64,000 nucleotides of DNA from Clostridia bacterium (GTDB taxonomy: Bacteria > Bacillota > Clostridia > TANB77 > CAG-508), in NCBI GenBank assembly GCA_016290095.1, contig JAEESU010000026.1, forward strand, positions 8,573 through 72,572. The letters are read 5' to 3'. The translations under genes were made by a program, and so were the position numbers. The notes under the pieces are model-generated. The model was not told where the DNA came from and searched no databases. It was given only the letters and a program-made list of their open reading frames with translations. Shown here one piece after another: positions 23,317 through 56,596 of the stretch. Every line of letters starts with the position of its first letter. The stretch's first letter is position 1.

Positions 23317-24216
23317 TCAAATTTTTTTATTCAATTTTAAATATTCACTCTTTCTAATAATACCATTTTGTCCACTTAGTAGATTAATTGCAATTTTATC
23401 ATTTTCTATTTCTTTTCTAATATTTTCTGGCAAAGTATTTTTATAAATAAAGCTTTCATACAAAATCGATTTGTCAAAATCATTAATCCATTCATCATAA
23501 TTATATTTATCTGGCAAACCAATATGAAATGAATATACATTTATTCCATTAAATGATTTAGTATGAATTTTTATTTTATTATTAACATTAATAAAACTAG
23601 CTTTAGGATATACATAATATTTATTAATATCCTCTTCAGAGAAATCATAATTAATTACAAAATCACTTTTTCTAAGACTTTTCTCATAGTGATTTGTTAT
23701 ATTTAAAATAATACCATTTTCCTCATATAGTTTTTTCTCAATTTTTAAAAATTTATTCTTATGCTTTGTTATAATATTAATCTCTCTAACCTTTAACGCC
23801 AAATTATATATTGTATTCATGATATCCGCATTTATATCATTAGTTAAAATAGACACTTTTTGATTTTCCATTTTATCTTTTTTATTCAAAACAATATATT
23901 CTACAATTTTCGAAACTAAATATTTAAAAAGCCAATTACCATTAAAATAATATATATCTTCTTCATTAAGCAATTGAATAAAATCGTTGTTATTCCTTAG
24001 CTCATCTGAAATACAAACAATGTTTGTACAGTTTAGCTTGAAAAATCTTTTTAGTCTTTTGATAGTTCTTTTATTAAGATCATTCAAAATAATTAATTGA
24101 TGTTCCCTATAATTCATTATTTTGAATTTGTTATTTTTTATAAGATAATATACTTTCTTTAAAAAATTATTTTTGTCTTCATATTTTTTTAGTGTTATAT
24201 ATAGCAAAAAAATCAC
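23317..24216 (-). CDS. Hypothetical protein, 299 aa, Lys/Asn-rich
   Basis: It is an ORF only, with no recognisable motifs. It is co-directional with the HExxH gene upstream. Confidence 0.35.
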   Translation of the reverse strand: MIFLLYITLKKYEDKNNFLKKVYYLIKNNKFKIMNYREHQLIILNDLNKRTIKRLKRFFKLNCTNIVCISDELRNNNDFIQLLNEEDIYYFNGNWLFKYLVSKIVEYIVLNKKDKMENQKVSILTNDINADIMNTIYNLALKVREINIITKHKNKFLKIEKKLYEENGIILNITNHYEKSLRKSDFVINYDFSEEDINKYYVYPKASFINVNNKIKIHTKSFNGINVYSFHIGLPDKYNYDEWINDFDKSILYESFIYKNTLPENIRKEIENDKIAINLLSGQNGIIRKSEYLKLNKKI

Positions 24217-24246: not shown

Positions 24247-25533
24247 TTATTCTTTTTGTCCATCATCAATACGATTTTTTCTGTTTGGCCTTATGCGTCT
24301 TTTTCGCATCGTATTTGATTCTTTTAATGCTAACGGATAGAATTCTTGTTTTTCATATTTTAAAGATTCCAGTTCGTGTATAATTTCTTCTTGTGAATAT
24401 CCCAATTTTAATAATTTTTGGCCAATTCTCTTATAAGTTCTATCATAATATTGAACATAGTCTCCTAATTGAGTTATCTCTTCATTATTATCTTTAACAT
24501 TTATTTTAGCCCTTTGGGTTTCTAAACTTCTTAATCTTGTTAATATATCTTTTGCATCTTCAATTGTATGCATCTTTGAAATATCTTGCCTAAATGCTTC
24601 TTTCATTAATTTATCTTGTGTTTCAGATAAATAATATAATCTATTTTTTACTAAGTCATCATCTTTTTCATATTCTAATACATTCATTCTTATAGTCATA
24701 AATGTATATAAATCTTTTCCGTATTTTTTTATAAATTCATGTGGAAATTCTCTTGTAGAAGCAAATTTTTTATCATAGCTCTTTCGCCCCATAATTATTT
24801 CCATTTGTCTTAGTAAACAAACTGCATATTTATAAGTATCAGCTCGAAAATTAAAAATAGCAAGCGATGGTTTTCTAGTTTCTTTGTATAAAACAGCTCG
24901 AGACATTTTAGGAAAGCTTCTTTCTACTGCTAAACTTTCTGCTTGAGCTTCAGACATAATATCATCTAGATTGCTCTCTTTTTCTTCTGTAAGCATATCT
25001 TGAATATAATGAATAAACTCATGAAATCTTGATGATTTTGCTTCTCTAGAATTTGTAGCCAATTCGTTTTCATTAAAAGCAATATAATGTTTATCTCTCT
25101 CATAATATCCTTTCATTAAAGAATCTTCTGTATTACCATCATGTGAGTGATAATATCTAATTGAAACACTTTTTATTAGCTTTATAATTCTTCCTATTGG
25201 AATCCTTTCTTTTGCAACACTTGCTAGCCACAAAAAATTTGCTATTTGTTCTTTTTTTAGTGCATTAGCAATATGATCTGGAAGATTATATAATTTTGGA
25301 TTTGTGTATATATCTTTAAAGCTAGTTTCTATTTCTCCTTCTTCTCCAATTAATTCATCTGCATCAATATAATCTTTACCAACTTTCATGGTATTATAAA
25401 AAAGTATTCTTTCTGTTCTTTCATCAAATGGTTTAAAAACTCTATATAACTTTTTATCATTCCATTTTCTGACATCTACAAGAATTCCTTTAAAACCTCT
25501 CATTGTGACTGGCTTAATTAATTTCCTACTCAT
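24247..25533 (-). CDS. Hypothetical HExxH-motif protein, a paralog of 36986..37984, with an Arg/Lys-rich C-terminal tail
   Basis: It contains ...SSRFHEFIHYIQDM, which aligns with TFHELGHIVHDM of the second copy across roughly 40 residues. It is 428 aa long. Confidence 0.45.
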   Translation of the reverse strand: MSRKLIKPVTMRGFKGILVDVRKWNDKKLYRVFKPFDERTERILFYNTMKVGKDYIDADELIGEEGEIETSFKDIYTNPKLYNLPDHIANALKKEQIANFLWLASVAKERIPIGRIIKLIKSVSIRYYHSHDGNTEDSLMKGYYERDKHYIAFNENELATNSREAKSSRFHEFIHYIQDMLTEEKESNLDDIMSEAQAESLAVERSFPKMSRAVLYKETRKPSLAIFNFRADTYKYAVCLLRQMEIIMGRKSYDKKFASTREFPHEFIKKYGKDLYTFMTIRMNVLEYEKDDDLVKNRLYYLSETQDKLMKEAFRQDISKMHTIEDAKDILTRLRSLETQRAKINVKDNNEEITQLGDYVQYYDRTYKRIGQKLLKLGYSQEEIIHELESLKYEKQEFYPLALKESNTMRKRRIRPNRKNRIDDGQKE

Positions 25534-26620: not shown

Positions 26621-27271
26621 TTATTGTTCGGATATATTAATATTTTTTATTTCTGTATCAAATTCTCTTGTAACAATATTTTGTATTTTTGCAATATCTT
26701 CTTTGGTTAAATTTGTTGATTGAATAATAACATCAATATTTCCATTATTTGCCAAAATTACTACATTTTCAAAACCTTTATTCATAATTAAATTTTCAGA
26801 AACCATTATCTCATTTTTTATTTTGGTTATATTATTTATTTCCTGCGCTGCAACCATTTTTTGATCTTCTGGTGTTTCTTGGTTACTAATAACTTTTTGA
26901 TATATTTCAACCATTTCTGAATACATTCTATCTCTTTCTAATTTTGTTTCCTCAAAATAATTATTATCTCTATAAATATAATTGTCTGATATAGTTTCTT
27001 CAATTTCATCATTTGGAACAATATCACTCTCAAAATTTTCCTCAACTGGTTCAGTACTTACTAACTCTACATCTCCTAAAGTGTTCTCGTTGTCTCTTGC
27101 AGACACTTCTATTATTTCTGCATTATCATTTGTGTAATTAAAATTAAAATAACCAATAAAAATTAATAATAATGCTAAACAAGTTAAAACTAATTGTTTT
27201 ATTTTTTCTTTTTGAAATTTACACATATTATTCATCTCCCATCTCATAAACTTGTATTTTATGTGTAGCAA
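26621..27271 (-). CDS. spoIIIAH: Stage III sporulation protein AH
   Basis: The C-terminal 110 aa are collinear with B. subtilis SpoIIIAH (FEETKLERDRMY...VVILANNGNIDVIIQS...). It has an N-terminal TM. Confidence 0.65.
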   Translation of the reverse strand: MLHIKYKFMRWEMNNMCKFQKEKIKQLVLTCLALLLIFIGYFNFNYTNDNAEIIEVSARDNENTLGDVELVSTEPVEENFESDIVPNDEIEETISDNYIYRDNNYFEETKLERDRMYSEMVEIYQKVISNQETPEDQKMVAAQEINNITKIKNEIMVSENLIMNKGFENVVILANNGNIDVIIQSTNLTKEDIAKIQNIVTREFDTEIKNINISEQ

Positions 27272-27804
27272 TTCCGTGTTACAGCTTCAACAGCAGAAAT
27301 AATATCTCCTCTAATTGTAGGATTACTAGCACCTTGAGCAATTACAAGTGCACCTTCTATTTGTGGCATAACAGTTTTCTCCGTAAGCATATTTGAACTG
27401 GCATCTTTTACTACTTCTTTTTCTTCACTAGTAGTCTCAGTAGTCTTTTTATTTCCTGATTCGTCGTTTTCTTCTGTTTTACTTTTATTTAAATTTGTAT
27501 TATATATAGGTATAATTGATTTACTTTCAGTATATGTAATTAATACAGATACTTTTCCAACACCATTTATTTTAGAAAGAATTTTCTCTAGCTTTTGTTC
27601 TAAATTATCTTGACTCAAATTTTCACTAGAATTAGTTGAAACTGCAAGTTCAACTCCTGTTTTATTAGTATATTCTCTTTCATCTTCTTTTTTTAGAATT
27701 CTATTAATTATTAATAAAGTTACAATTAAAATAATCAAAAAAGAAATTAGGTTCTCTACTCTTTTTTCTTTATTTGTAAATATACTCTTTATTTTATCAA
27801 TCAT
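27259..27804 (-). CDS. spoIIIAG: Stage III sporulation protein AG
   Basis: The C-terminal PQIEGALVIAQGASNPTIRGDIISAVEAVT matches the SpoIIIAG signature. It has an N-terminal TM. Confidence 0.7.
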   Translation of the reverse strand: MIDKIKSIFTNKEKRVENLISFLIILIVTLLIINRILKKEDEREYTNKTGVELAVSTNSSENLSQDNLEQKLEKILSKINGVGKVSVLITYTESKSIIPIYNTNLNKSKTEENDESGNKKTTETTSEEKEVVKDASSNMLTEKTVMPQIEGALVIAQGASNPTIRGDIISAVEAVTRNCYT

Positions 27805-28271
27805 TGACTACCTCGTATTTCAATATTTTGCTCATCAACAAAATAATTATTTTTTAAATATTCATATATATTATTTGTGTTTTCAGAAAACTGATTCAAA
27901 ACAATATCTACATGATTTATTGTTTCATAATTTGAATCTAATTGTATTTTTACATCTTTTATGTCTAATCCTCTTTCAATTAACTCGTTTTTTATGCTAT
28001 CTTCTATTCCTAAAATATAAATATCTTTTATATTTGTATCCATATCTACATATGTTTCTTCAATACTTACATTAAAAATCGAATCTATATTTATTTTATC
28101 ATCTAATAAATCTAAAATTGGATTTATTATCACATATAAAATATAAATTCCAATTATTACTTTAGCATATTTTTTATTGTTTCCTTCTGGTATTAGCATT
28201 TCAATAATAATTGAAATAATAATAACTACTATTAAGCCTTCACACCATTCTTTTAATTTATAAATCATCAT
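27801..28271 (-). CDS. spoIIIAF: Stage III sporulation protein AF
   Basis: The N-terminal two-TM region with KYAKVIIGIYIL matches SpoIIIAF. Confidence 0.6.
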   Translation of the reverse strand: MMIYKLKEWCEGLIVVIIISIIIEMLIPEGNNKKYAKVIIGIYILYVIINPILDLLDDKINIDSIFNVSIEETYVDMDTNIKDIYILGIEDSIKNELIERGLDIKDVKIQLDSNYETINHVDIVLNQFSENTNNIYEYLKNNYFVDEQNIEIRGSQ

Positions 28272-29360
28272 TTACCTATACATTAAAACACTATTTGTTA
28301 TTTTTATAACAATTGTAATTCCAATAATAAACATTGTAGAAACTGAACATAAAATTGCAAATAATATTTTATAACCATCTGCTATCTGATCTAATAACTT
28401 TACAATTTTATCATCTGCTATTGTTTCACAAACTGCTGATGTTAGTTTAAATGTTAGCCACATTACTAGTATTTTAATAAGTGGCATTAAAACAATTCCT
28501 ATAATTATTATTACTCCAACAATTCCTACTGAGTTTTTCAAGATATTACTACAGCCCATTACAGTATCTACAGTATCTCCAAGTATTTTTCCAACAACTG
28601 GTATTATTGTAGAAACAGCTGTTTTTGCAGTTTTAGAAGTTACTCCATCTACACCACTACTTAATGTTCCTTCTAATGATAATATACAAGTAAATAAAGT
28701 TAATAATATTCCCAATGTCCAAATGATGAATGATTTGAAACATTTAGATAGTTTATCAACTTGTACTTTATCGGAAATGTTTGAAATTATTGATAATACA
28801 ATAGATATCATTAATAACGGTATTAATAAAACTTCTATAAAATTTCCAATAAAACTAGATAAAAAAATTAGTATTGGTTGGAATGTATTAGTTGTAATAA
28901 TGCTTCCAGTTGTTAACATTAATGTCGTCATTAATGGAATTAGTAAATTCATAAAATTAGTAAGGTTGTTTATTGTTTCTTTTGTAATATCAATTATCAT
29001 AATAAACTGGTTTACTATCATTGTCACAATTATTAGATATTGTACAAAATAAACTATTTTACTGCTTTCTGTATTTTTTAATCCATCTATAATTGTTTTA
29101 AATATAGTATGTATTATTATTACAACTAAAATTGCTGACAAAAAACTTATACTTTCCCTTAGTTCTTTTAAAAATATTTTGCTTATTGCATTTTCTCTTA
29201 AAAGACTATTTATGTTTCCGCTTAGTGATACTGTAAATAGTTTGTCCAAATTCATTTCTGGAAAAACAGTTTTTGTATATTCTTCTGACGAATCTAAAAA
29301 CTGATTAATACCAAATTTATTCATTTCAGATGAAATTATCTCATTCATTTTTATCTCCAA
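28272..29360 (-). CDS. spoIIIAE: Stage III sporulation protein AE
   Basis: It is a 362-aa polytopic membrane protein at the expected position and of the expected size. Confidence 0.75.
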   Translation of the reverse strand: MEIKMNEIISSEMNKFGINQFLDSSEEYTKTVFPEMNLDKLFTVSLSGNINSLLRENAISKIFLKELRESISFLSAILVVIIIHTIFKTIIDGLKNTESSKIVYFVQYLIIVTMIVNQFIMIIDITKETINNLTNFMNLLIPLMTTLMLTTGSIITTNTFQPILIFLSSFIGNFIEVLLIPLLMISIVLSIISNISDKVQVDKLSKCFKSFIIWTLGILLTLFTCILSLEGTLSSGVDGVTSKTAKTAVSTIIPVVGKILGDTVDTVMGCSNILKNSVGIVGVIIIIGIVLMPLIKILVMWLTFKLTSAVCETIADDKIVKLLDQIADGYKILFAILCSVSTMFIIGITIVIKITNSVLMYR

Positions 29361-29732
29361 TTATGGCAATAATTTAACTAATATTTCTAATGTGTTGGAA
29401 ATAATTGGAATTGAAAGCGAAATAATAATTATTTTACTTCCAAAATCAATTTTACTTGCTATTGATGTTTCTCCAGAATCTTTGCAAATACTCATTGCAT
29501 ATTCAGATAGAATAGAAATTCCTGTAATTTTTAATAGTAAATTTATAAAATTATTATTAGAAACATTTTTTACAAAAGAAAAAATCTCTTTTATTGTGTC
29601 TATAGAATATAAAATAATAATAATTCCACAGACAACAAGAACATATACTGAATATTCCTTTTTATATTCTTTTAAAATTATCGATAAAACAAGTGCAAGA
29701 AAACATATTCCAATTATTTTAAAAATATCCAT
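29361..29732 (-). CDS. spoIIIAD: Stage III sporulation protein AD
   Basis: It is 123 aa long, has four TM helices, and contains LLLKITGISILSEYA. Confidence 0.7.
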   Translation of the reverse strand: MDIFKIIGICFLALVLSIILKEYKKEYSVYVLVVCGIIIILYSIDTIKEIFSFVKNVSNNNFINLLLKITGISILSEYAMSICKDSGETSIASKIDFGSKIIIISLSIPIISNTLEILVKLLP

Positions 29733-29926
29733 TATAAATTAAACACCGTCCTAACAGTTTCAAAAAGAGAGCTTATTTCTTTTACAACAACTGTCATCAC
29801 TATAACCATTCCGGCTAGTGTAATCATCATTGCTTGGTCTTCTCTACCTGCTTTTGTTAAAACTTGATGTAGCACAGCAATTAGTATTCCTATTCCTGCA
29901 ATTTTTAGCAATAAATCAATATTCAT
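29732..29926 (-). CDS. spoIIIAC: Stage III sporulation protein AC
   Basis: It is 64 aa long and begins MNIDLLLKIAGIGILIAVLHQVL. A GGAGAGGG RBS precedes it. Confidence 0.8.
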   Translation of the reverse strand: MNIDLLLKIAGIGILIAVLHQVLTKAGREDQAMMITLAGMVIVMTVVVKEISSLFETVRTVFNL

Positions 29927-29934
29927 AACCCTCT

Positions 29935-30440
29935 CCTAAATTAAAATAATACAAATTCCAAGTCCTATAATAACTCCTAATGTCTTATATAGTTTTGAAG
30001 ATTTATTTTTTTCAATCTCTGCATTTTGAATCTGAGTATTAATTAGATTTTTCGTGTATTCAATACTGCTTAATTGTCCTTTTATATCAGTTTTTCCGAA
30101 GCTGTTTTCCAAATGTTTTTATAATTTCTTTATCTTCTTTTGTAAAACTGTTATCTATTTTTTCAACTGATTCACACCAAGACTCAAAAAATTGATTATT
30201 TCTCGAATTAACATTTATAAAAATATTATCCTTATCTGAATAAATAACTTTTGAAATATCTTTGAATATATCTCCTAAAGGTTCATGAGTAAACTCAATT
30301 TTGCTTTTTAACATATTTAAAGAATTATTAATTTTTTTCAAATTTTCTTCTCTACACTCGAATGTTTTTGCTTTAAGAATTCCTAAATAAGAACTAATTA
30401 AGCAAATAAAAAGGAGCATTATTAATTTTATTATTATCAT
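29935..30440 (-). pseudogene. spoIIIAB: spoIIIAB interrupted by a frameshift. The annotated ORF is 30087..30440 and the C-terminus continues in another frame to about 29935.
   Basis: The annotated ORF ends ...FGKQLRKN*. The next frame continues TDIKGQLSSIEYTKNLINTQIQNAEIEKNKSSKLYKTLGVIIGLGICIILI*, which matches the SpoIIIAB C-terminal helix and TM. The shift sits in an A5 run at about 30091-30095. Confidence 0.6.
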
Positions 30441-50491: not shown

Positions 50492-50869
50492 ATGAATAAC
50501 AATAATTCAAGTGCTGAATCAAATAGTTCAATGAATACTGTTGGACAATTAATTGGAAGATTTGTTGTTGCTGCTATTATTTTAGGAATAACAGCCTTCT
50601 TTACACCTGGTTTTTCTATTAATAATATTTGGACATTAGCAATATCCGCTCTTGTTCTAACAGTTATGGATTATTTAATAGTAAAATTTACTGGTCTACA
50701 CGCTATGGCTTTCGGTAAAGGTTTCGTTGGATTTGTACTTGCAGTTGTAATATTATATGCCACTCAATTTTTTGTTGCTGGATATACAATATCTTGGATG
50801 GCAGCAATTATTGGAGCATTAATATATGGTATAATTGATTACATTATGCCTGGCGAACAAAGAATGTAG
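50492..50869 (+). CDS. DUF360 / phage-holin-4_2 (YvlD-like) four-TM membrane protein
   Basis: It has two internal repeats, each with a (P/A)G(F/Y)xI..(I/W)W motif followed by a TM helix. Confidence 0.5.
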   Translation: MNNNNSSAESNSSMNTVGQLIGRFVVAAIILGITAFFTPGFSINNIWTLAISALVLTVMDYLIVKFTGLHAMAFGKGFVGFVLAVVILYATQFFVAGYTISWMAAIIGALIYGIIDYIMPGEQRM

Positions 50870-50996
50870 TAAAAAGCGATGTGTTAAGCATTATTTAAAT
50901 AATTTTTAACATATCGCTAAATTTTTTTAATTTTTTTAAAATTTTTTGTCACATTTTGCTACTCTGAATTGTTTTACTTATGAGAGGAGTAAAAAT

Positions 50997-51689
50997 ATGA
51001 TTAAAGTTTTAATAGTTTGTAAACAATTAGAAAATGCAAAGAAAATATTCAATAATATTGTAAGTAAAATTAAAAATCTACATTTAATTGGAATTGCAAA
51101 TTCGTTTCAAGAAGCAAAAAAGATATTAATAGATGAAGAAGCAGATATTATTATCACAACTTCGAAAAATACTGTTACATTTATAAAAAATAATTTTATT
51201 ACATATAATCCTGGTATTATAATTATTGATAATATTCCAAGAATTGAATTTGATTATCGCAAAGCCTTAATTATTAGTAATGAGAAAAGTCTTGATGAAA
51301 TAAAAGATAGAATACAATTCTTTTTAAGACACAATATTGAAAAATCTCAAAAAGAAACAATATCTTCCGTTTTAACTCAATTAGGCTTCAGCTTTAATTG
51401 GTCTGGAACAATATATCTTTTAGATTCAATTTTATACGCACATTCATATAAAGGCTCATATAGTTTTGAACGTGTTAAACGAGATATTTATTTTAATGTA
51501 GCTAATTCCAATAATACCACAAGTAGTAGAGTAAAATGGTCTATAGAAAGAGCAATAAAATACATGTACAGTAAGCATACTAAAGAAACATATAAATATG
51601 TAGAAAAATTACTAAAAATTAAATATCCACAAAGACCTGTTGCAAAACAAATTATCAGCATTGTAGCAAATTCTTTAGATTTACTTTAA
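50997..51689 (+). CDS. Spo0A-like protein with a degenerate, non-phosphorylatable receiver domain plus a Spo0A_C DNA-binding domain
   Basis: The C-terminal 120 aa align with Spo0A_C: ISSVLTQLG..GTIYLLDSILYA, NTTSSRVKWSIERAIKYMYS and RPVAKQIISIVANSL. The N-terminal fold is receiver-like, but the acidic pocket and phospho-Asp are replaced (KVLIVCKQ and DIIITTSKN). The start was chosen at MIKV, which follows a GAGGAG RBS. Confidence 0.6.
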   Translation: MIKVLIVCKQLENAKKIFNNIVSKIKNLHLIGIANSFQEAKKILIDEEADIIITTSKNTVTFIKNNFITYNPGIIIIDNIPRIEFDYRKALIISNEKSLDEIKDRIQFFLRHNIEKSQKETISSVLTQLGFSFNWSGTIYLLDSILYAHSYKGSYSFERVKRDIYFNVANSNNTTSSRVKWSIERAIKYMYSKHTKETYKYVEKLLKIKYPQRPVAKQIISIVANSLDLL

Positions 51690-51699
51690 TTGGCAAGAG

Positions 51700-51830
51700 T
51701 TTCACAGTTTCACAGGGACGTTCCTTTTAGTGCCAAAATGAAACTAAAGGGACACTCCTTATATAAGGAGTGTCCCAAGTGTGTCAAAATAGAACTAAAA
51801 GGAACGTCCCTGTGAAACTGTGAAAAAATG
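51700..51830. repeat. Full-length nested palindromic intergenic repeat element between convergent genes
   Basis: The outer 32-bp inverted arms are TTTCACAGTTTCACAGGGACGTTCCTTTTAGT and ACTAAAAGGAACGTCCCTGTGAAACTGTGAAA. The inner perfect palindrome is GGGACACTCCTTATATAAGGAGTGTCCC. Confidence 0.7.
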
Positions 51831-51843
51831 AAACCGTGGAATT

Positions 51844-54621
51844 TTAGCTTAAATTATCTCTACAGTTTTCACATAGTGTTGGGTGCTCTGCATTTTGTCC
51901 TACTGTTTCTGAATACATCCAGCATCTTTCACATTTTTCTCCACTGGCTTTTTCAACTTTAACACCTAAATCTACTTCTTCATCTGCATTTCTTCTATTG
52001 CTTAATATTTCAACATCAGATACTATGAATACATCTTTTAATATATCTCTGTTTTCTTTTAAAAATTCATATTGATCATTTTCTTCCGCATAAAGTGTAA
52101 CTTTTGCTTCTAATGATAATCCTATTTCTTTTTCTGTCCTTGCTACTTCTAGTTTTTTACTTACAGCATCTTTTATTTTTATAATTTTTTCCCATTTTAA
52201 TGATAATGCTTCATCATCATATTTTGGATTTACTTTTGGATAATACTCAAGCATAACACTTTCTGTATTTTCTCCATTTTTATGTTGCATATAACTCCAT
52301 ATTTCTTCTGCAGTAAAGCATGTCATTGGAGCTAGTATTCTAACTAAACAAGATAATATTTCATACATTGTTGTTTGAGCTGCTCTTCTTTCTATAGATT
52401 GAGGTTTAGTTACATATAATCTATTTTTTATGATATCTAAGTAGAATTGACTCATATCAACAACGCAAAATTGATTGATTGCTTGATAAGCTTCATGGAA
52501 ATCATAATTATCATATGCTTTCGTGCAAGTTCTTATTAAATTGTTTAATCTTGTTAAAGCCCATTTATCTATTTCTTGTAAATCTTCATATGCTACTGGA
52601 TTGTTTGGATTATAATCATAAGTATTTCCTAATATATATCTAGCTGTGTTTCTTATTTTTCTGTATACTTCTGTTACTTGTTTTAATATATTCTTAGATA
52701 CACTTACATCTGATTGATAGTCTGATGCAAGAACCCAAAGTCTTAAAACATCTGCTCCGGATTCCTTAATTATTTCTTGAGGAGCAATTACATTTCCTAC
52801 AGATTTACTCATTTTTCTTCCTTGTTCATCAACTGTATATCCGTGAGTAACAACTTGTTTATAAGGTGCTTTTCCAAAATTTGCTACAGATGTTAAAAGT
52901 GAACTTTGGAACCATCCTCTATATTGGTCAGATCCTTCTAAGTAAAGATCTGCTTCTGGAAGTCCTCTTTCCTCCAATACTGAATGATATGTTGATCCGC
53001 TATCAAACCAAACATCCATAATATCTGTTTCTTTCTTAAATTCTGTACATCCGCATTCGCATTTAGCATTCTCAGGCATTAATTCTTTTTCAGATAAATC
53101 GAACCATGCGTTTGACCCTTTTTCTTTAAATATTTCTTGAACTTTCTTTAATGACTCATCTGTCATATATGGCTTACCGCAATCTTTACAATAGAATGCT
53201 GGAATTGGAACTCCCCATGTTCTTTGACGAGATATACACCAATCATTTCTATCTTCAACCATTTTTGAGATTCTTTCTTCACCCCAAGCAGGTATCCATT
53301 TTACAGTTTTAATTGCTTCTAATGTTTCTTTTCTAAATCCATCAACAGATGCAAACCACTGATTTGTAGCTCTAAATATAACTGGTTTTTTACATCTCCA
53401 GCAATGTGGATATGAGTGCATTACATCTTCTTCTTTTAGTAATAAATTATGTTCTTCTAACCATTTTAAGATTTCTTTGTTTGATTTAGCATAAAACATA
53501 TCTTTAAATGGTCCAGCGCCTTCTCCTCTTTGAACACCTTTTTCATCAACAGTTACTATTATTTCACTATTTTTCTTTAATCCTAATAAATAGTCTTCTT
53601 TACCATAACTAGGTGCACAGTGAACTAATCCAGAGCCTGTTTCAAGTTCTACATTAACAGTATCTTCTGAACCATTTACAACTAAAGAATCTCTATCTAA
53701 AAATGGATGACGACAAACTAAACCTTCTAATTCTGCTCCATCAAACTCTTTTAATACTTTATATTCTTTTATACCAGCTTTTTCCATTACTTTATTTACA
53801 AGTTCTGATGCGATTACTATTTTTTCACCATTTTCTTCAACTAAAGCGTATTTGAAATCTGGTCCAGCAGCAATCATAGTATTTCCAGGTAATGTCCATG
53901 GAGTTGTTGTCCAAATTACAAAATAAGTATTTTCTTTATCAAATAATCCTTTACTATCTTTAACAGGAAATTTTACAAAAGCAGTTTGACTCATTACATC
54001 TTTATATTCGATTTCTGCTTCTGCTAATGCTGTTTCACAATCTGTGCACCAATAAACTGGTTTTAATCCTTTATAAATGTATCCTTTTCTATACATACCA
54101 GCAAACACTTCAACTTGTTTTGCTTCCATTTGAGGTTGATATGTTATATATGGATGTTCCCAATCTCCTAATACTCCTAATCTTTTAAATCCTTCTGTTT
54201 GAGCATCTTTATATTTTGATGTAAATTCTCTACAAGTATCTCTAAATGTATTTACAGGTATTTTACTTCTATCCAATCCTAATTTTTCTATTGCCTTTTT
54301 CTCTGTTGGCATACCATGTGTATCGTATCCAGGAATATAAGGAGTATAATATCCTTGTAAATTTTTATATCTAACAACAGTATCTTTTAATACTTTATTT
54401 AGTGCATGACCTATATGAATTTCTCCATTTGCATATGGAGGTCCATCATGTAGCACAAATGGTGTTTTACCCTCATTCTTTTTTAACATTTTTTCATATA
54501 AACCATTTTCAAATACTTTTTCTAGTATTTTAGGTTCATTTTCTGGTAAACTTGCTCTCATTGGAAACTCTGTTTTTGGCAAGTTTAGTGTTTTTCCATA
54601 ATCTTTCTTTTCTTCACACAT
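51844..54621 (-). CDS. ileS: Isoleucine--tRNA ligase
   Basis: It is 925 aa long. It has a HIGH-type motif (PYANGEIHIGH), KMSKS, and a C-terminal zinc-binding set of Cys residues. Confidence 0.95.
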   Translation of the reverse strand: MCEEKKDYGKTLNLPKTEFPMRASLPENEPKILEKVFENGLYEKMLKKNEGKTPFVLHDGPPYANGEIHIGHALNKVLKDTVVRYKNLQGYYTPYIPGYDTHGMPTEKKAIEKLGLDRSKIPVNTFRDTCREFTSKYKDAQTEGFKRLGVLGDWEHPYITYQPQMEAKQVEVFAGMYRKGYIYKGLKPVYWCTDCETALAEAEIEYKDVMSQTAFVKFPVKDSKGLFDKENTYFVIWTTTPWTLPGNTMIAAGPDFKYALVEENGEKIVIASELVNKVMEKAGIKEYKVLKEFDGAELEGLVCRHPFLDRDSLVVNGSEDTVNVELETGSGLVHCAPSYGKEDYLLGLKKNSEIIVTVDEKGVQRGEGAGPFKDMFYAKSNKEILKWLEEHNLLLKEEDVMHSYPHCWRCKKPVIFRATNQWFASVDGFRKETLEAIKTVKWIPAWGEERISKMVEDRNDWCISRQRTWGVPIPAFYCKDCGKPYMTDESLKKVQEIFKEKGSNAWFDLSEKELMPENAKCECGCTEFKKETDIMDVWFDSGSTYHSVLEERGLPEADLYLEGSDQYRGWFQSSLLTSVANFGKAPYKQVVTHGYTVDEQGRKMSKSVGNVIAPQEIIKESGADVLRLWVLASDYQSDVSVSKNILKQVTEVYRKIRNTARYILGNTYDYNPNNPVAYEDLQEIDKWALTRLNNLIRTCTKAYDNYDFHEAYQAINQFCVVDMSQFYLDIIKNRLYVTKPQSIERRAAQTTMYEILSCLVRILAPMTCFTAEEIWSYMQHKNGENTESVMLEYYPKVNPKYDDEALSLKWEKIIKIKDAVSKKLEVARTEKEIGLSLEAKVTLYAEENDQYEFLKENRDILKDVFIVSDVEILSNRRNADEEVDLGVKVEKASGEKCERCWMYSETVGQNAEHPTLCENCRDNLS

Positions 54622-54629
54622 TTTAATAT

Positions 54630-54930
54630 ACTCCCTTTCTTATATTTTAATAAAAACAAAAAAGCTATTTCATCCTACATAGGACGAAATAGCTTGAAAT
54701 TCCGTGGTACCACCTAAATTAATTAATTATCGAAATTAATTCACTTATTTTTCTCTTAACGCGAGTAAACGAATTGTTTTACTATTAATTCAAACAATCA
54801 GCTCTAAGGTGATAATAAATAGTTTATTATCTTGCTAAACTTTCAGCCCATGATTTAGCTCTCTAAAAAAGTTTTACACTATTTACCTTGTCCTTTTCTT
54901 TGCTTTTATTTATTAATATAATAATCTTAA
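54630..54930 (-). promoter_or_regulatory. T-box riboswitch leader of ileS, with its promoter
   Basis: On the minus strand, the T-box consensus AATTTAGGTGGTACCACGG lies at 54702-54720, and a terminator hairpin AAGCTATTTCGTCCTATGTAGGATGAAATAGCTT followed by T6 lies at 54662-54695. A candidate specifier AUC-A sits in the stem I region. A TTGACA -35 and a TGtTAAGAT extended -10 lie at about 54925-54955. Confidence 0.75.
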
Positions 54931-55012: not shown

Positions 55013-56596
55013 TTAGATGTGTTCAGTGATCTCGATTTTTTCTCCGTTGTTTCTCATAATCCACATTTTGCCAACACGCTTGCTGACGATTTCTTTGTGA
55101 GTATGCGAAACAATAATAGCACAAGCACCAATATTTTCGATTATACTTTTGATGAAAGAAATAACGATTTCAGCATTCTGATCAGAAATATTTGACAAAA
55201 TTTCATCAAAGATGAGTAGCTGAGGCTTATCAGGAAAACGTTCATGAGTTTTTTCAGCCATATAGAGCATCTGGAGAGCAACTAGTCTTTGTAAATCTGC
55301 TGAGTTTAGTTGTTTTGTAATCTTTGCTTCATAAAACTCAGATTCAGATTCAGGTATACGGCCTGCGATTCCCAAACCACTCGCAAGTTTCCTAATAAGT
55401 TGGAAATCAACATTTCCATTGATGGAAAAGTTTTCCCAAAGTGTAGTACTAATTGCAGTTTTGGAATCGTACAAGATTGCTTCAGGAATGATGTCTTTGA
55501 TCAAGCGATTAAACCGACTCTTACCTGTTTCATTTTCGCCATCAAGCTGTACAATCATCCCCTTCTGGATGGTCAGGTCGCTCGAAATCTCATACCAGCT
55601 ATCAGGCCTATCAGGATGTTTCACATTTGCTGTAAAGCCTTTCTTTACCCTCAAGCCTCGTTCTGACAACTCAACATTTAGTCTCTGCTTCTCTTGCAAA
55701 TGCAGACGTTCAGATTCATCTCGAATTAGCTCACGCAGCTCCTTATCTCTCGAATACTTTATCATCTTTGTGACATCTTCAACGATGTTTCCAATGTCAT
55801 TTGCAAATGATAAGACGTACCCATATGCAGTAAAGATGATATAAGAATACGAATATGGAGTGCCATTAGTAATCTTAACTTCTGCAATAGCCCACATCAA
55901 TGCAACAAAGCAAACTACCTTAATCAACTCAGGAAGGAGCCTAAGTCCATTTTTCACAAGCTGAATGGTAATCTGTTTCCAGTAACTGCCCTCAACTTCA
56001 TGAAGTCTTTCTTCTAACACATTTGTTGATATCATGAACGAATTCGATAGCAGTTCTTGCCTTGTCTGAATGTTTGCTCCAACATTATCAGCTCTCTGCT
56101 GGAGTAGTCCTCTCCGAATACCGCAAACAACTCCAATTGCAAGCACCGAAATTGCTCCGATAATCTGCGGAACTGTCATGTCAACAATCTTCATAATTAC
56201 CACTGTATAAATCAGACTGATGACTGCCTGAATACTCTCAATAACTGTAGAAACTTTGGCATTCTCGTAATTGAATTTTCTAAGACAGATTTCTTTTTTC
56301 CCAGTTTGTATTACTCCATCAAAGCTTCTGAAGAAATTGATCTTTTGGACTTTGACAAGCCACATCTGAGAGAAAATAATCAGCAAAGTACATCCAATCG
56401 AAAGAGCGGTACTAGTAAGTCCAATTGTAAGATATCGATGCCACGCATCCATGTTTCCTTCCTGAACGCTCTTCTGAGATATAAGGTAATTGTAGTTCAG
56501 AATTTTCTCGATGACAACACAGCTGAAAAGCAGGAAGAACAGCATAATTAGCCGTTTTAGTCCCTTCTTTCCGAGAAATGCATAGTTTTTTACCAT
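55013..56596 (-). CDS. Fused ABC exporter (permease plus ATPase) with a degenerate signature motif
   Basis: It has N-terminal TM helices, Walker A GENETGKS, Walker B LLIFDE and an H-loop SHTH, and the LSGGQ signature is replaced by LNSAD. The gene is markedly more GC-rich than its flanks. Confidence 0.6.
   Translation of the reverse strand: MVKNYAFLGKKGLKRLIMLFFLLFSCVVIEKILNYNYLISQKSVQEGNMDAWHRYLTIGLTSTALSIGCTLLIIFSQMWLVKVQKINFFRSFDGVIQTGKKEICLRKFNYENAKVSTVIESIQAVISLIYTVVIMKIVDMTVPQIIGAISVLAIGVVCGIRRGLLQQRADNVGANIQTRQELLSNSFMISTNVLEERLHEVEGSYWKQITIQLVKNGLRLLPELIKVVCFVALMWAIAEVKITNGTPYSYSYIIFTAYGYVLSFANDIGNIVEDVTKMIKYSRDKELRELIRDESERLHLQEKQRLNVELSERGLRVKKGFTANVKHPDRPDSWYEISSDLTIQKGMIVQLDGENETGKSRFNRLIKDIIPEAILYDSKTAISTTLWENFSINGNVDFQLIRKLASGLGIAGRIPESESEFYEAKITKQLNSADLQRLVALQMLYMAEKTHERFPDKPQLLIFDEILSNISDQNAEIVISFIKSIIENIGACAIIVSHTHKEIVSKRVGKMWIMRNNGEKIEITEHI

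Follow-up and report, generated by a model that had tools for sequence, protein, structure and literature searches.

Can a protein retain Spo0A's DNA-binding domain and still act as a regulator once none of the residues required for phosphorylation is left in its receiver? This question is raised by a gene in a 64,000-nucleotide stretch of a Clostridia bacterium genome (assembly GCA_016290095.1, contig JAEESU010000026.1, positions 8,573 to 72,572; hereafter the window, 28.4% GC), which encodes a Spo0A-like protein. Spo0A is among the most conserved regulators of the Firmicutes, and its gene normally lies directly after spoIVB. Our analysis shows that both domains of the Spo0A-like protein descend from a Spo0A-type response regulator and that all five catalytic and switch residues of the receiver have been lost. 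On balance we favor the view that it is a lineage-specific Spo0A paralog working as a phosphorylation-independent ('atypical') transcription factor.

The Spo0A_C profile PF08769 matches the C-terminal half of the protein with 42.5 bits (gathering cut-off 25 bits) and is recovered in all 27 aligned members of its family (alignment A1). Sequence searches with phmmer retrieve 1fc3 and 1lq1, two structures of the Spo0A effector domain, on which the C-terminal half of an AlphaFold2 (AF2) model superimposes with template modeling (TM) scores of 0.80–0.85 and a root-mean-square deviation of 2.3 Å in Foldseek. As profile score, sequence search and fold superposition agree, the assignment of this half as a genuine Spo0A_C domain is sound. 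A preliminary description of this DNA, made without database searches, had named the same domain and proposed PF08769 as a check, which it passes, but had also described the match to Spo0A as nearly residue-for-residue. This does not hold: identity to the corresponding half of B. subtilis Spo0A is 23–26%, a 20-residue segment quoted as a hallmark is identical at only 10 of 20 positions, and the supposed near-match of the recognition helix extends to only 6 of 15 residues.

The 15-residue recognition helix is invariant among the canonical Spo0A proteins of B. subtilis, C. difficile and C. acetobutylicum (alignment A3), and in the window protein 9 of these residues are replaced, including the substitutions E213K, R214W, R217E and H218R relative to Spo0A. 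At the positions of Spo0A E213, R214 and H218 the family instead has K180 (26/27 members), W181 (27/27) and R185 (27/27), and the position of R217 is variable and mostly glutamate (E184 in the window protein). The family thereby has a recognition-helix signature of its own, RVKW-I-R-I-YMY; W181 and R185, along with G137 and T138 elsewhere in the domain, are invariant throughout. The σA-activating segment of Spo0A (…LFGYT…) is likewise not conserved. On the TIGR02875 equivalog model the protein scores 36.6 bits, far under the cut-off of 200 bits, and by this score, its receiver, its recognition helix and its gene location it is not a bona fide Spo0A.

The N-terminal half retains a receiver-type fold that is invisible to the standard profiles: neither PF00072 (at E≤1) nor the minor pseudo-receiver Pfam families match any of the 27 members. 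The AF2 model computed from the family alignment (mean predicted local distance difference test score, pLDDT, of 85.8) shows by DSSP the element order β1α1β2α2β3α3β4-β5α5, with helix α4 missing, and Foldseek pairs this half with the receivers of DesR, MicA, CheB and Spo0A (Spo0A-N, 1qmp) at TM scores of 0.62–0.73. An hhalign comparison of the family alignment with canonical Spo0A runs end to end over 222 columns (probability 97.8%, E 8e-13), covering β1 and the Spo0A-typical segment 'GIA..G.EA'. In this framework D10, D11, D56, T86 and K108 of B. subtilis Spo0A correspond to C8, K9, T55, D78 and N95 (S94 instead of N95 by hhalign), such that C8 and K9 stand for the acidic pair and T55 for the phospho-accepting aspartate; the catalytic residues are missing in 27/27 members. 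Also deleted relative to Spo0A are the β3-α3 loop (IMPHLDG in Spo0A) and the interdomain linker, and in place of the flexible Spo0A hinge a single continuous helix joins the receiver-like α5 to the first helix of Spo0A_C. The loss of the aspartates from the acidic pocket and of the phospho-acceptor, both proposed in the preliminary description, is thus confirmed, and its label of a pseudo-receiver is correct, the domain being even more degenerate than had been recognized. With both the phospho-acceptor and the acidic pocket gone, phosphorelay control is very unlikely; the preliminary description had called it impossible. A role of Cys8 as an essential redox sensor was considered and rejected, the residue being Cys in 19/27 and Ser in 8/27 members.

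The gene itself is well delimited, as first proposed. It begins with an ATG preceded by the ribosome-binding site GAGAGGAG and ends with a stop codon at 51687–51689, and the N-termini of its orthologs all read M-I/L-K-V/L-L from an ATG. A longer open reading frame (ORF) starting with TTG at 50946 is an artifact of the mechanical ORF list, and was rejected because this TTG sits within a conserved promoter box (see below) and because the orthologs all begin at the ATG. Among 5.8 billion proteins searched by word index, only 29 clusters of such proteins were recovered, of about 228–232 residues and with PF08769 as their only domain match. With each GTDB species represented by a single genome, a scan yielded 8 loci, all from metagenome-assembled genomes (MAGs) of uncultured gut Clostridia from human or mouse with 26–28% GC, and look-ups of exact protein matches added further orthologous loci, including those of the most divergent members. 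At every locus the gene occupies a fixed slot, in the order mreB, a GT2 gene, a DUF4363 gene, a yetF-like gene, a holin-like gene, the Spo0A-like gene and the convergent ileS, and this slot is filled by a single copy in 12 related species of uncultured gut Clostridia.

The intergenic sequence between the holin-like and the Spo0A-like genes is mostly unalignable between species, save for one block of about 45 bp. Within it the box TTTGTCAC (50945–50952) is invariant in 12/12 loci and is followed 10 bp downstream by a second box, which varies among species as TGTCGTT, TGTCGGT, TGTCGAG, TGTCAAG or TGTTTTT; some species show an extra box 10 bp upstream of TTTGTCAC, which in one of them (L026) is a perfect TGTCGAA. 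The boxes are followed in the alignment of upstream regions by a conserved AATTGTTTTA, and a conserved GAATTGTTTTA lies at 50966–50976 in the window. TTTGTCAC occurs once in the window and once per locus, always at this site, with no further copy of this 8-mer in the window or in the approximately 215 kb of clade DNA sampled (loci L001–L027). Scaling from shuffles of the window, about 7–8 chance copies would be expected in that amount of DNA, and avoidance of spurious sites is a possible explanation of the scarcity. A scan for promoter consensus sequences upstream of the gene gave nothing above background, and visual inspection of the promoter revealed no σH, σE, σF, σG or σK motif.

Taken together, these features suggest a mode of action independent of phosphorylation. 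Given the missing phosphorylation residues, the protein would act without aspartate phosphorylation, in a manner analogous to pseudo-receiver or aspartate-less receiver (ALR) regulators, with the dead receiver serving as a constitutive dimerization or partner-binding module, and how strongly it is expressed, or a partner, would determine its activity in place of a kinase. In 1lq1 the effector domain reportedly binds adjacent boxes in tandem, head to tail, and by analogy with Spo0A-C the protein might bind tandem direct repeats phased at 10 bp. Its preferred site would be the variant box TGTCAC, and the invariance of this box in its own promoter points to autoregulation. The neighboring 0A-like boxes (TGTCGnn, including the perfect TGTCGAA of one species) may in addition let canonical Spo0A~P act on the same promoter. 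Thus, the gene is probably autoregulated and/or controlled by Spo0A, and the DNA specificity of its product is probably altered.

The most serious competitor to autoregulation, which we regard as a real though less than even possibility, is that the upstream boxes are ordinary Spo0A sites, so that the gene belongs to the canonical Spo0A regulon and its product works on other targets without regulating itself. This explanation is compatible with the protein being a paralog and differs only in what binds the operator; it would imply that expression of the gene is turned up or shut down as stationary phase or sporulation begins. Within the 0A box, TGTCGAA, Spo0A contacts G2, C4 and G5 (PMC3485338); of these bases, G2 and C4 are preserved in the upstream boxes, and G5 is in many cases. 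Variants such as TGTCGTT, TGTCGAG and TGTCAAG, the perfect box of L026 and the 10-bp phasing would all be expected of Spo0A sites. A further point in its favor is a second tandem site, TTTGTCATTTTTTGTCAAAA, with 10-bp-phased 0A-like boxes, located between genes at the window's right edge (63922–63941, +); it is the only other tandem TGTC site found, and the chance expectation for such a pattern is 0.09. This site lies upstream of a gene on the opposite strand (62629–63876, -) and is followed by a -35-like hexamer, TTGCAA, facing a gene beyond the window. However, the only strictly invariant box, TGTCAC, differs from the 0A consensus in 12/12 loci at two positions, 5 (which Spo0A contacts) and 6, and canonical Spo0A itself was not found in the window or in the fetched loci.

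The preliminary description had instead envisaged a constitutive competitor or co-regulator acting on canonical 0A boxes throughout the genome. The retained Spo0A_C fold, the loss of phospho-control and the presence of TGTC-type boxes at the gene's own promoter are all in keeping with such a role, and the model is still tenable because the TGTC core is retained. We nevertheless judge it unlikely: in the recognition helix 9 of 15 otherwise invariant residues are replaced, including those at the positions of E213, R214, R217 and H218, which makes competition at canonical boxes less likely, as do a C-terminal domain only about 25% identical to that of Spo0A, the lack of conservation of the σA-activating segment and an invariant upstream box that reads TGTCAC rather than TGTCGAA. 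The sole TGTCGAA in the window lies inside a coding region, at a frequency no higher than chance. Of the preliminary description as a whole, the ORF, the Spo0A_C domain and the lost receiver residues stand and the closeness of the match to Spo0A does not; in its interpretation, a Spo0A homolog with a dead receiver is supported and plain competition is weakened. The idea of a paralog with altered specificity could be extended to a two-regulator switch, in which the kinase-blind protein on TGTCAC sits beside Spo0A~P on TGTCGnn, head to tail, in composite operators and, in the extreme case, has replaced phospho-Spo0A as the lineage gives up sporulation, with more than 1,000 clusters of short Spo0A-like proteins representing a radiation of Spo0A_C into non-sporulation regulation accompanied by repeated death of the receiver. 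This more ambitious scenario appears improbable to us.

Several observations weigh against the reading of the protein as an atypical, self-regulating paralog. Its DNA binding, autoregulation and dimerization are all inferred properties. In the window the second box is degenerate (TGCTACT, 50957–50963), and the placement of the σA -35 and -10 elements at this promoter is ambiguous. Box 2 may be no more than a -35 hexamer (TTGTCG/TTGTCA), or may double as one, and the phased T-tracts could represent a curvature or UP-like element instead of protein-binding sites. The argument for altered specificity further assumes that E213, R214 and R217 are base-contacting residues of Spo0A, as Zhao and colleagues reportedly found in 2002. 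Two further points concern the regulator to which the protein would be paralogous. No second Spo0A_C gene is present in the 64-kb window or in the fetched loci, with about 3% of a genome inspected; this agrees with the earlier remark that a canonical spo0A is not in the window. Furthermore, spoIIIAA is split in the window into two ORFs (30441–31401, -), which match positions 7–153 and 156–299 of the Pfam Spore_III_AA profile. The frameshift, near 30950–30972, results from a single extra base in the Walker A motif (cct ggt tcg C ggt aag aca aca); unless it is an assembly error, it may signal decaying sporulation. The rest of the spoIIIA operon (26621–30440) appears intact.

The last two points also favor the possibility that this is the clade's only Spo0A, namely a highly diverged and relocated ortholog that runs, or once ran, sporulation without phosphorylation, as does the conservation of the gene in every sampled member of the clade. 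We consider this improbable. Besides the small part of a genome inspected, the gene does not adjoin spoIVB, being flanked at all orthologous loci by the holin-like gene and ileS, and evolves 4–10 times faster than its neighbors. Moreover, it belongs to a distinct family of short Spo0A-like proteins, members of which score 65–97 bits on TIGR02875. Galperin et al. (bioRxiv 10.1101/2022.02.25.481979) report that every genome in their analysis with a substantial set of sporulation genes carries spo0A; extra spo0A paralogs are counted there in 11 of 118 Spo0A-encoding genomes, with two copies in 10 of them and three in Anaerostipes hadrus. A canonical spo0A is thus quite likely to be present elsewhere in the genome, given the spoIIIAA-AH operon and dpaA in the window, the location and rapid evolution of the Spo0A-like gene, the distinctness of its family from Spo0A, the conserved 0A-like boxes, and the co-occurrence of Spo0A with sporulation genes and the extra paralogs in that survey. 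In a search with a profile of the canonical Spo0A proteins of B. subtilis, C. difficile and C. acetobutylicum, the best 120 of 8,000 candidates were confined to B. subtilis and the Peptostreptococcaceae, among them C. difficile.

The sequence evolution of the gene bears on whether it is functional at all. Identity to the window's proteins is 80–95% for the neighbors (about 80% for IleS and about 93% for MreB) and 38–45% for the Spo0A-like protein; compared with ileS, the holin-like gene and yetF, its rate of nonsynonymous substitution (dN) is 4–10 times as high. Within the family, mean pairwise identity is 58% for the C-terminal domain and 43% for the N-terminal domain. The ratio of dN to the synonymous rate (dS), estimated by the Nei-Gojobori method for pairs with unsaturated dS, is 0.04–0.32. 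The gene is a functional, fast-evolving, single-copy ortholog group of one narrow clade, under purifying selection. That it is a decaying remnant without function, as the lost catalytic residues and rapid divergence might suggest, is very improbable, as the selection analysis effectively refutes it and as in at least 29 clusters the reading frame is unbroken and constant in length, W181, R185, G137 and T138 are invariant, the promoter block is conserved and the AF2 model is confident.

The narrow clade is embedded in a much wider, unstudied family of short Spo0A-like regulators from gut Clostridia that are uncultured and low in GC. A profile built from the 27 sequences and run on 1.84 billion representative proteins recovered 1,118 representatives at E≤1e-3, a number that falls to 265 at E≤1e-10, and nearly all of the best 150 matches are proteins of 210–250 residues aligned end to end. 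Among the full-length members examined (n=146), 28 have the complete D-D-D-S/T-K receiver signature, 34 have the phospho-accepting aspartate only and 85 have none of these residues. The members with intact receivers, to which the TIGR02875 scores given above belong, lie far below 200 bits and are Spo0A-like response regulators, not Spo0A. As 28 of the 146 keep the complete signature, the degeneration of the receiver is derived, and apparently recurrent, within this family of short Spo0A-like regulators. The examples of the wider family that we looked up lie on contigs of 23–27% GC in varied contexts, next to an RHS toxin gene in one case and to a gene for a σ70-type protein of about 460 residues in two, and the only name attached to any member in its source is 'Spo0A C-terminal domain protein'. 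The latter context is seen at L022 (4069–6760) and L024 (7978–10636), where short Spo0A-like proteins of 235 and 211 residues, respectively, with degenerate receivers belong to a three-gene module composed of a σ70 r2/r4 protein of about 460 residues, a divergent ORF of 136–141 residues and the Spo0A-like gene; the σ70 r2/r4 protein of the L022 module carries DUF4179. This module may encode a sigma/regulator pair.

Comparison with known systems helps to place the window family. It shares with Spo0A (TIGR02875; 1qmp, 1fc3, 1lq1) the succession of receiver and Spo0A_C, the same folds, end-to-end profile homology, the GIA motif of the receiver, the 'NTT.SRV' start of the recognition helix, and 0A-like TGTC boxes in the upstream region, which spo0A promoters have as well. 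It differs from Spo0A in its length (230 versus 260–280 residues), in its recognition helix (K-W..E-R versus E-R..R-H), in a hinge that is now a rigid helix, and in the loss of the acidic pocket, the phospho-accepting aspartate, the Thr/Lys switch, the β3-α3 loop and α4. Like the extra spo0A paralogs of Clostridiales (bioRxiv 10.1101/2022.02.25.481979), it would represent an additional Spo0A-family gene beside the master regulator; in the accessible part of that source, however, these paralogs are counted only, with neither receivers nor function described, and the present family comes from uncultured MAGs.

The ALR regulators RitR, ChxR, HP1043 and Hp1021 also combine a receiver-like fold lacking the phospho-acceptor with a DNA-binding output, and are expected to function as constitutive dimers or under the control of redox state, ligands or abundance, without aspartate phosphorylation (PMC4395418, PMC12632262). 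The window protein agrees with them in its receiver-type fold and lost phospho-acceptor and departs from them in having Spo0A_C as its output, in a truncated (βα)5 fold without α4, and in an N-terminal domain that domain-detection software does not recognize. Truncated Spo0A homologs of phages (PMC10294663) similarly have Spo0A_C uncoupled from phosphorelay input, but unlike the window protein they have no N-terminal domain, and the window gene is chromosomal and syntenic. A comparable Spo0A_C-only ORF of 117 residues is found at L022 (GCA_948647495.1, CAPKQW010000035.1, 2154–2507), directly after a holin gene and a GH25/LysM lysin gene in a context resembling a prophage. The recognition helix of its product, NVKWCIEQSVRTMY, contains the V-K-W motif, with the K-W pair common to the window family, at an overall identity of 27%. 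A phage origin of the window gene was rejected on the basis of this low identity, weak PHROG hits and a tblastn search with the Spo0A-like protein that found no match in 50,697 phage genomes.

Pseudo-receivers are common, and counts of additional spo0A paralogs have been published; a pseudo-receiver family with a Spo0A_C output figures in neither source, as far as their accessible parts go; a 2025 review of pseudo-receivers never mentions Spo0A in its main text. Spo0A_C represents an added class of output domain for the pseudo-receiver catalogue, and surveys based on PF00072 would miss the receiver-like domain of this protein. More generally, the scope of the family indicates that the DNA-binding module of Spo0A has diversified well beyond the master regulator. 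Spo0A is usually taken as a single-copy conserved marker, and Spo0A_C is used for 'spo0A present' calls in sporulation surveys. Short Spo0A_C proteins, many of them with dead receivers invisible to PF00072, can inflate such calls in gut MAGs. The invariant TGTCAC beside 0A-like boxes further leads to the prediction of an altered specificity and of cross-talk between Spo0A and a kinase-independent relative. The coordinates of the principal features are collected in Table 1.

Table 1. Features of the Spo0A-like gene and its surroundings, in window coordinates.
Feature	Position	Strand	Basis
Spo0A-like protein coding sequence, 230 residues plus stop	50997..51689	+	ORF read; alignment of orthologs begins at this Met
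Degenerate receiver-like domain, residues 1-98	50997..51290	+	AF2/DSSP, Foldseek, hhalign
Long continuous helix, residues 99-129	51291..51383	+	DSSP on AF2 model; hhalign
Spo0A_C DNA-binding domain, residues 122-227	51360..51677	+	PF08769, phmmer, Foldseek
Recognition-helix region, T174-Y191 (TTSSRVKWSIERAIKYMY)	51516..51569	+	Column counts in A1; mapping to B. subtilis Spo0A
Conserved promoter/operator block	50941..50981	+	Alignment of upstream regions of orthologous loci
Ribosome-binding site GAGAGGAG	50982..50989	+	Read directly from the sequence
Conserved upstream neighbor, small membrane protein of the Phage_holin_4_2 family	50492..50869	+	Pfam; all orthologous loci
Palindrome between the convergent Spo0A-like gene and ileS, 126 nt	51700..51825	.	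Repeat search and terminator scan
Conserved convergent neighbor ileS	51844..54621	-	ORF; synteny
T-box leader of ileS	54677-54909		Rfam T-box

Elsewhere in the window, six ORFs of 237–526 residues (24247–25533, 23317–24216, 36986–37984, 38080–38796, 34573–35634 and 55013–56596, all on the - strand) have no match in Pfam and/or NCBIfam; they lie amid housekeeping genes and the glycolysis cluster gap-pgk-tpi-gpmI. The palindrome downstream of the Spo0A-like gene has arms of 63 nt that are 84% complementary. As its inner GC hairpin (51749–51776) resembles a terminator in the terminator scan, the element is probably the transcript end of the Spo0A-like gene. It is present in none of 28 related loci, and is thus species-specific. 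It resembles a repeated terminator element of the repetitive extragenic palindromic (REP) or miniature inverted-repeat transposable element (MITE) type, and a near-identical copy of its arm lies at 38929–38949, just 3' of gap.

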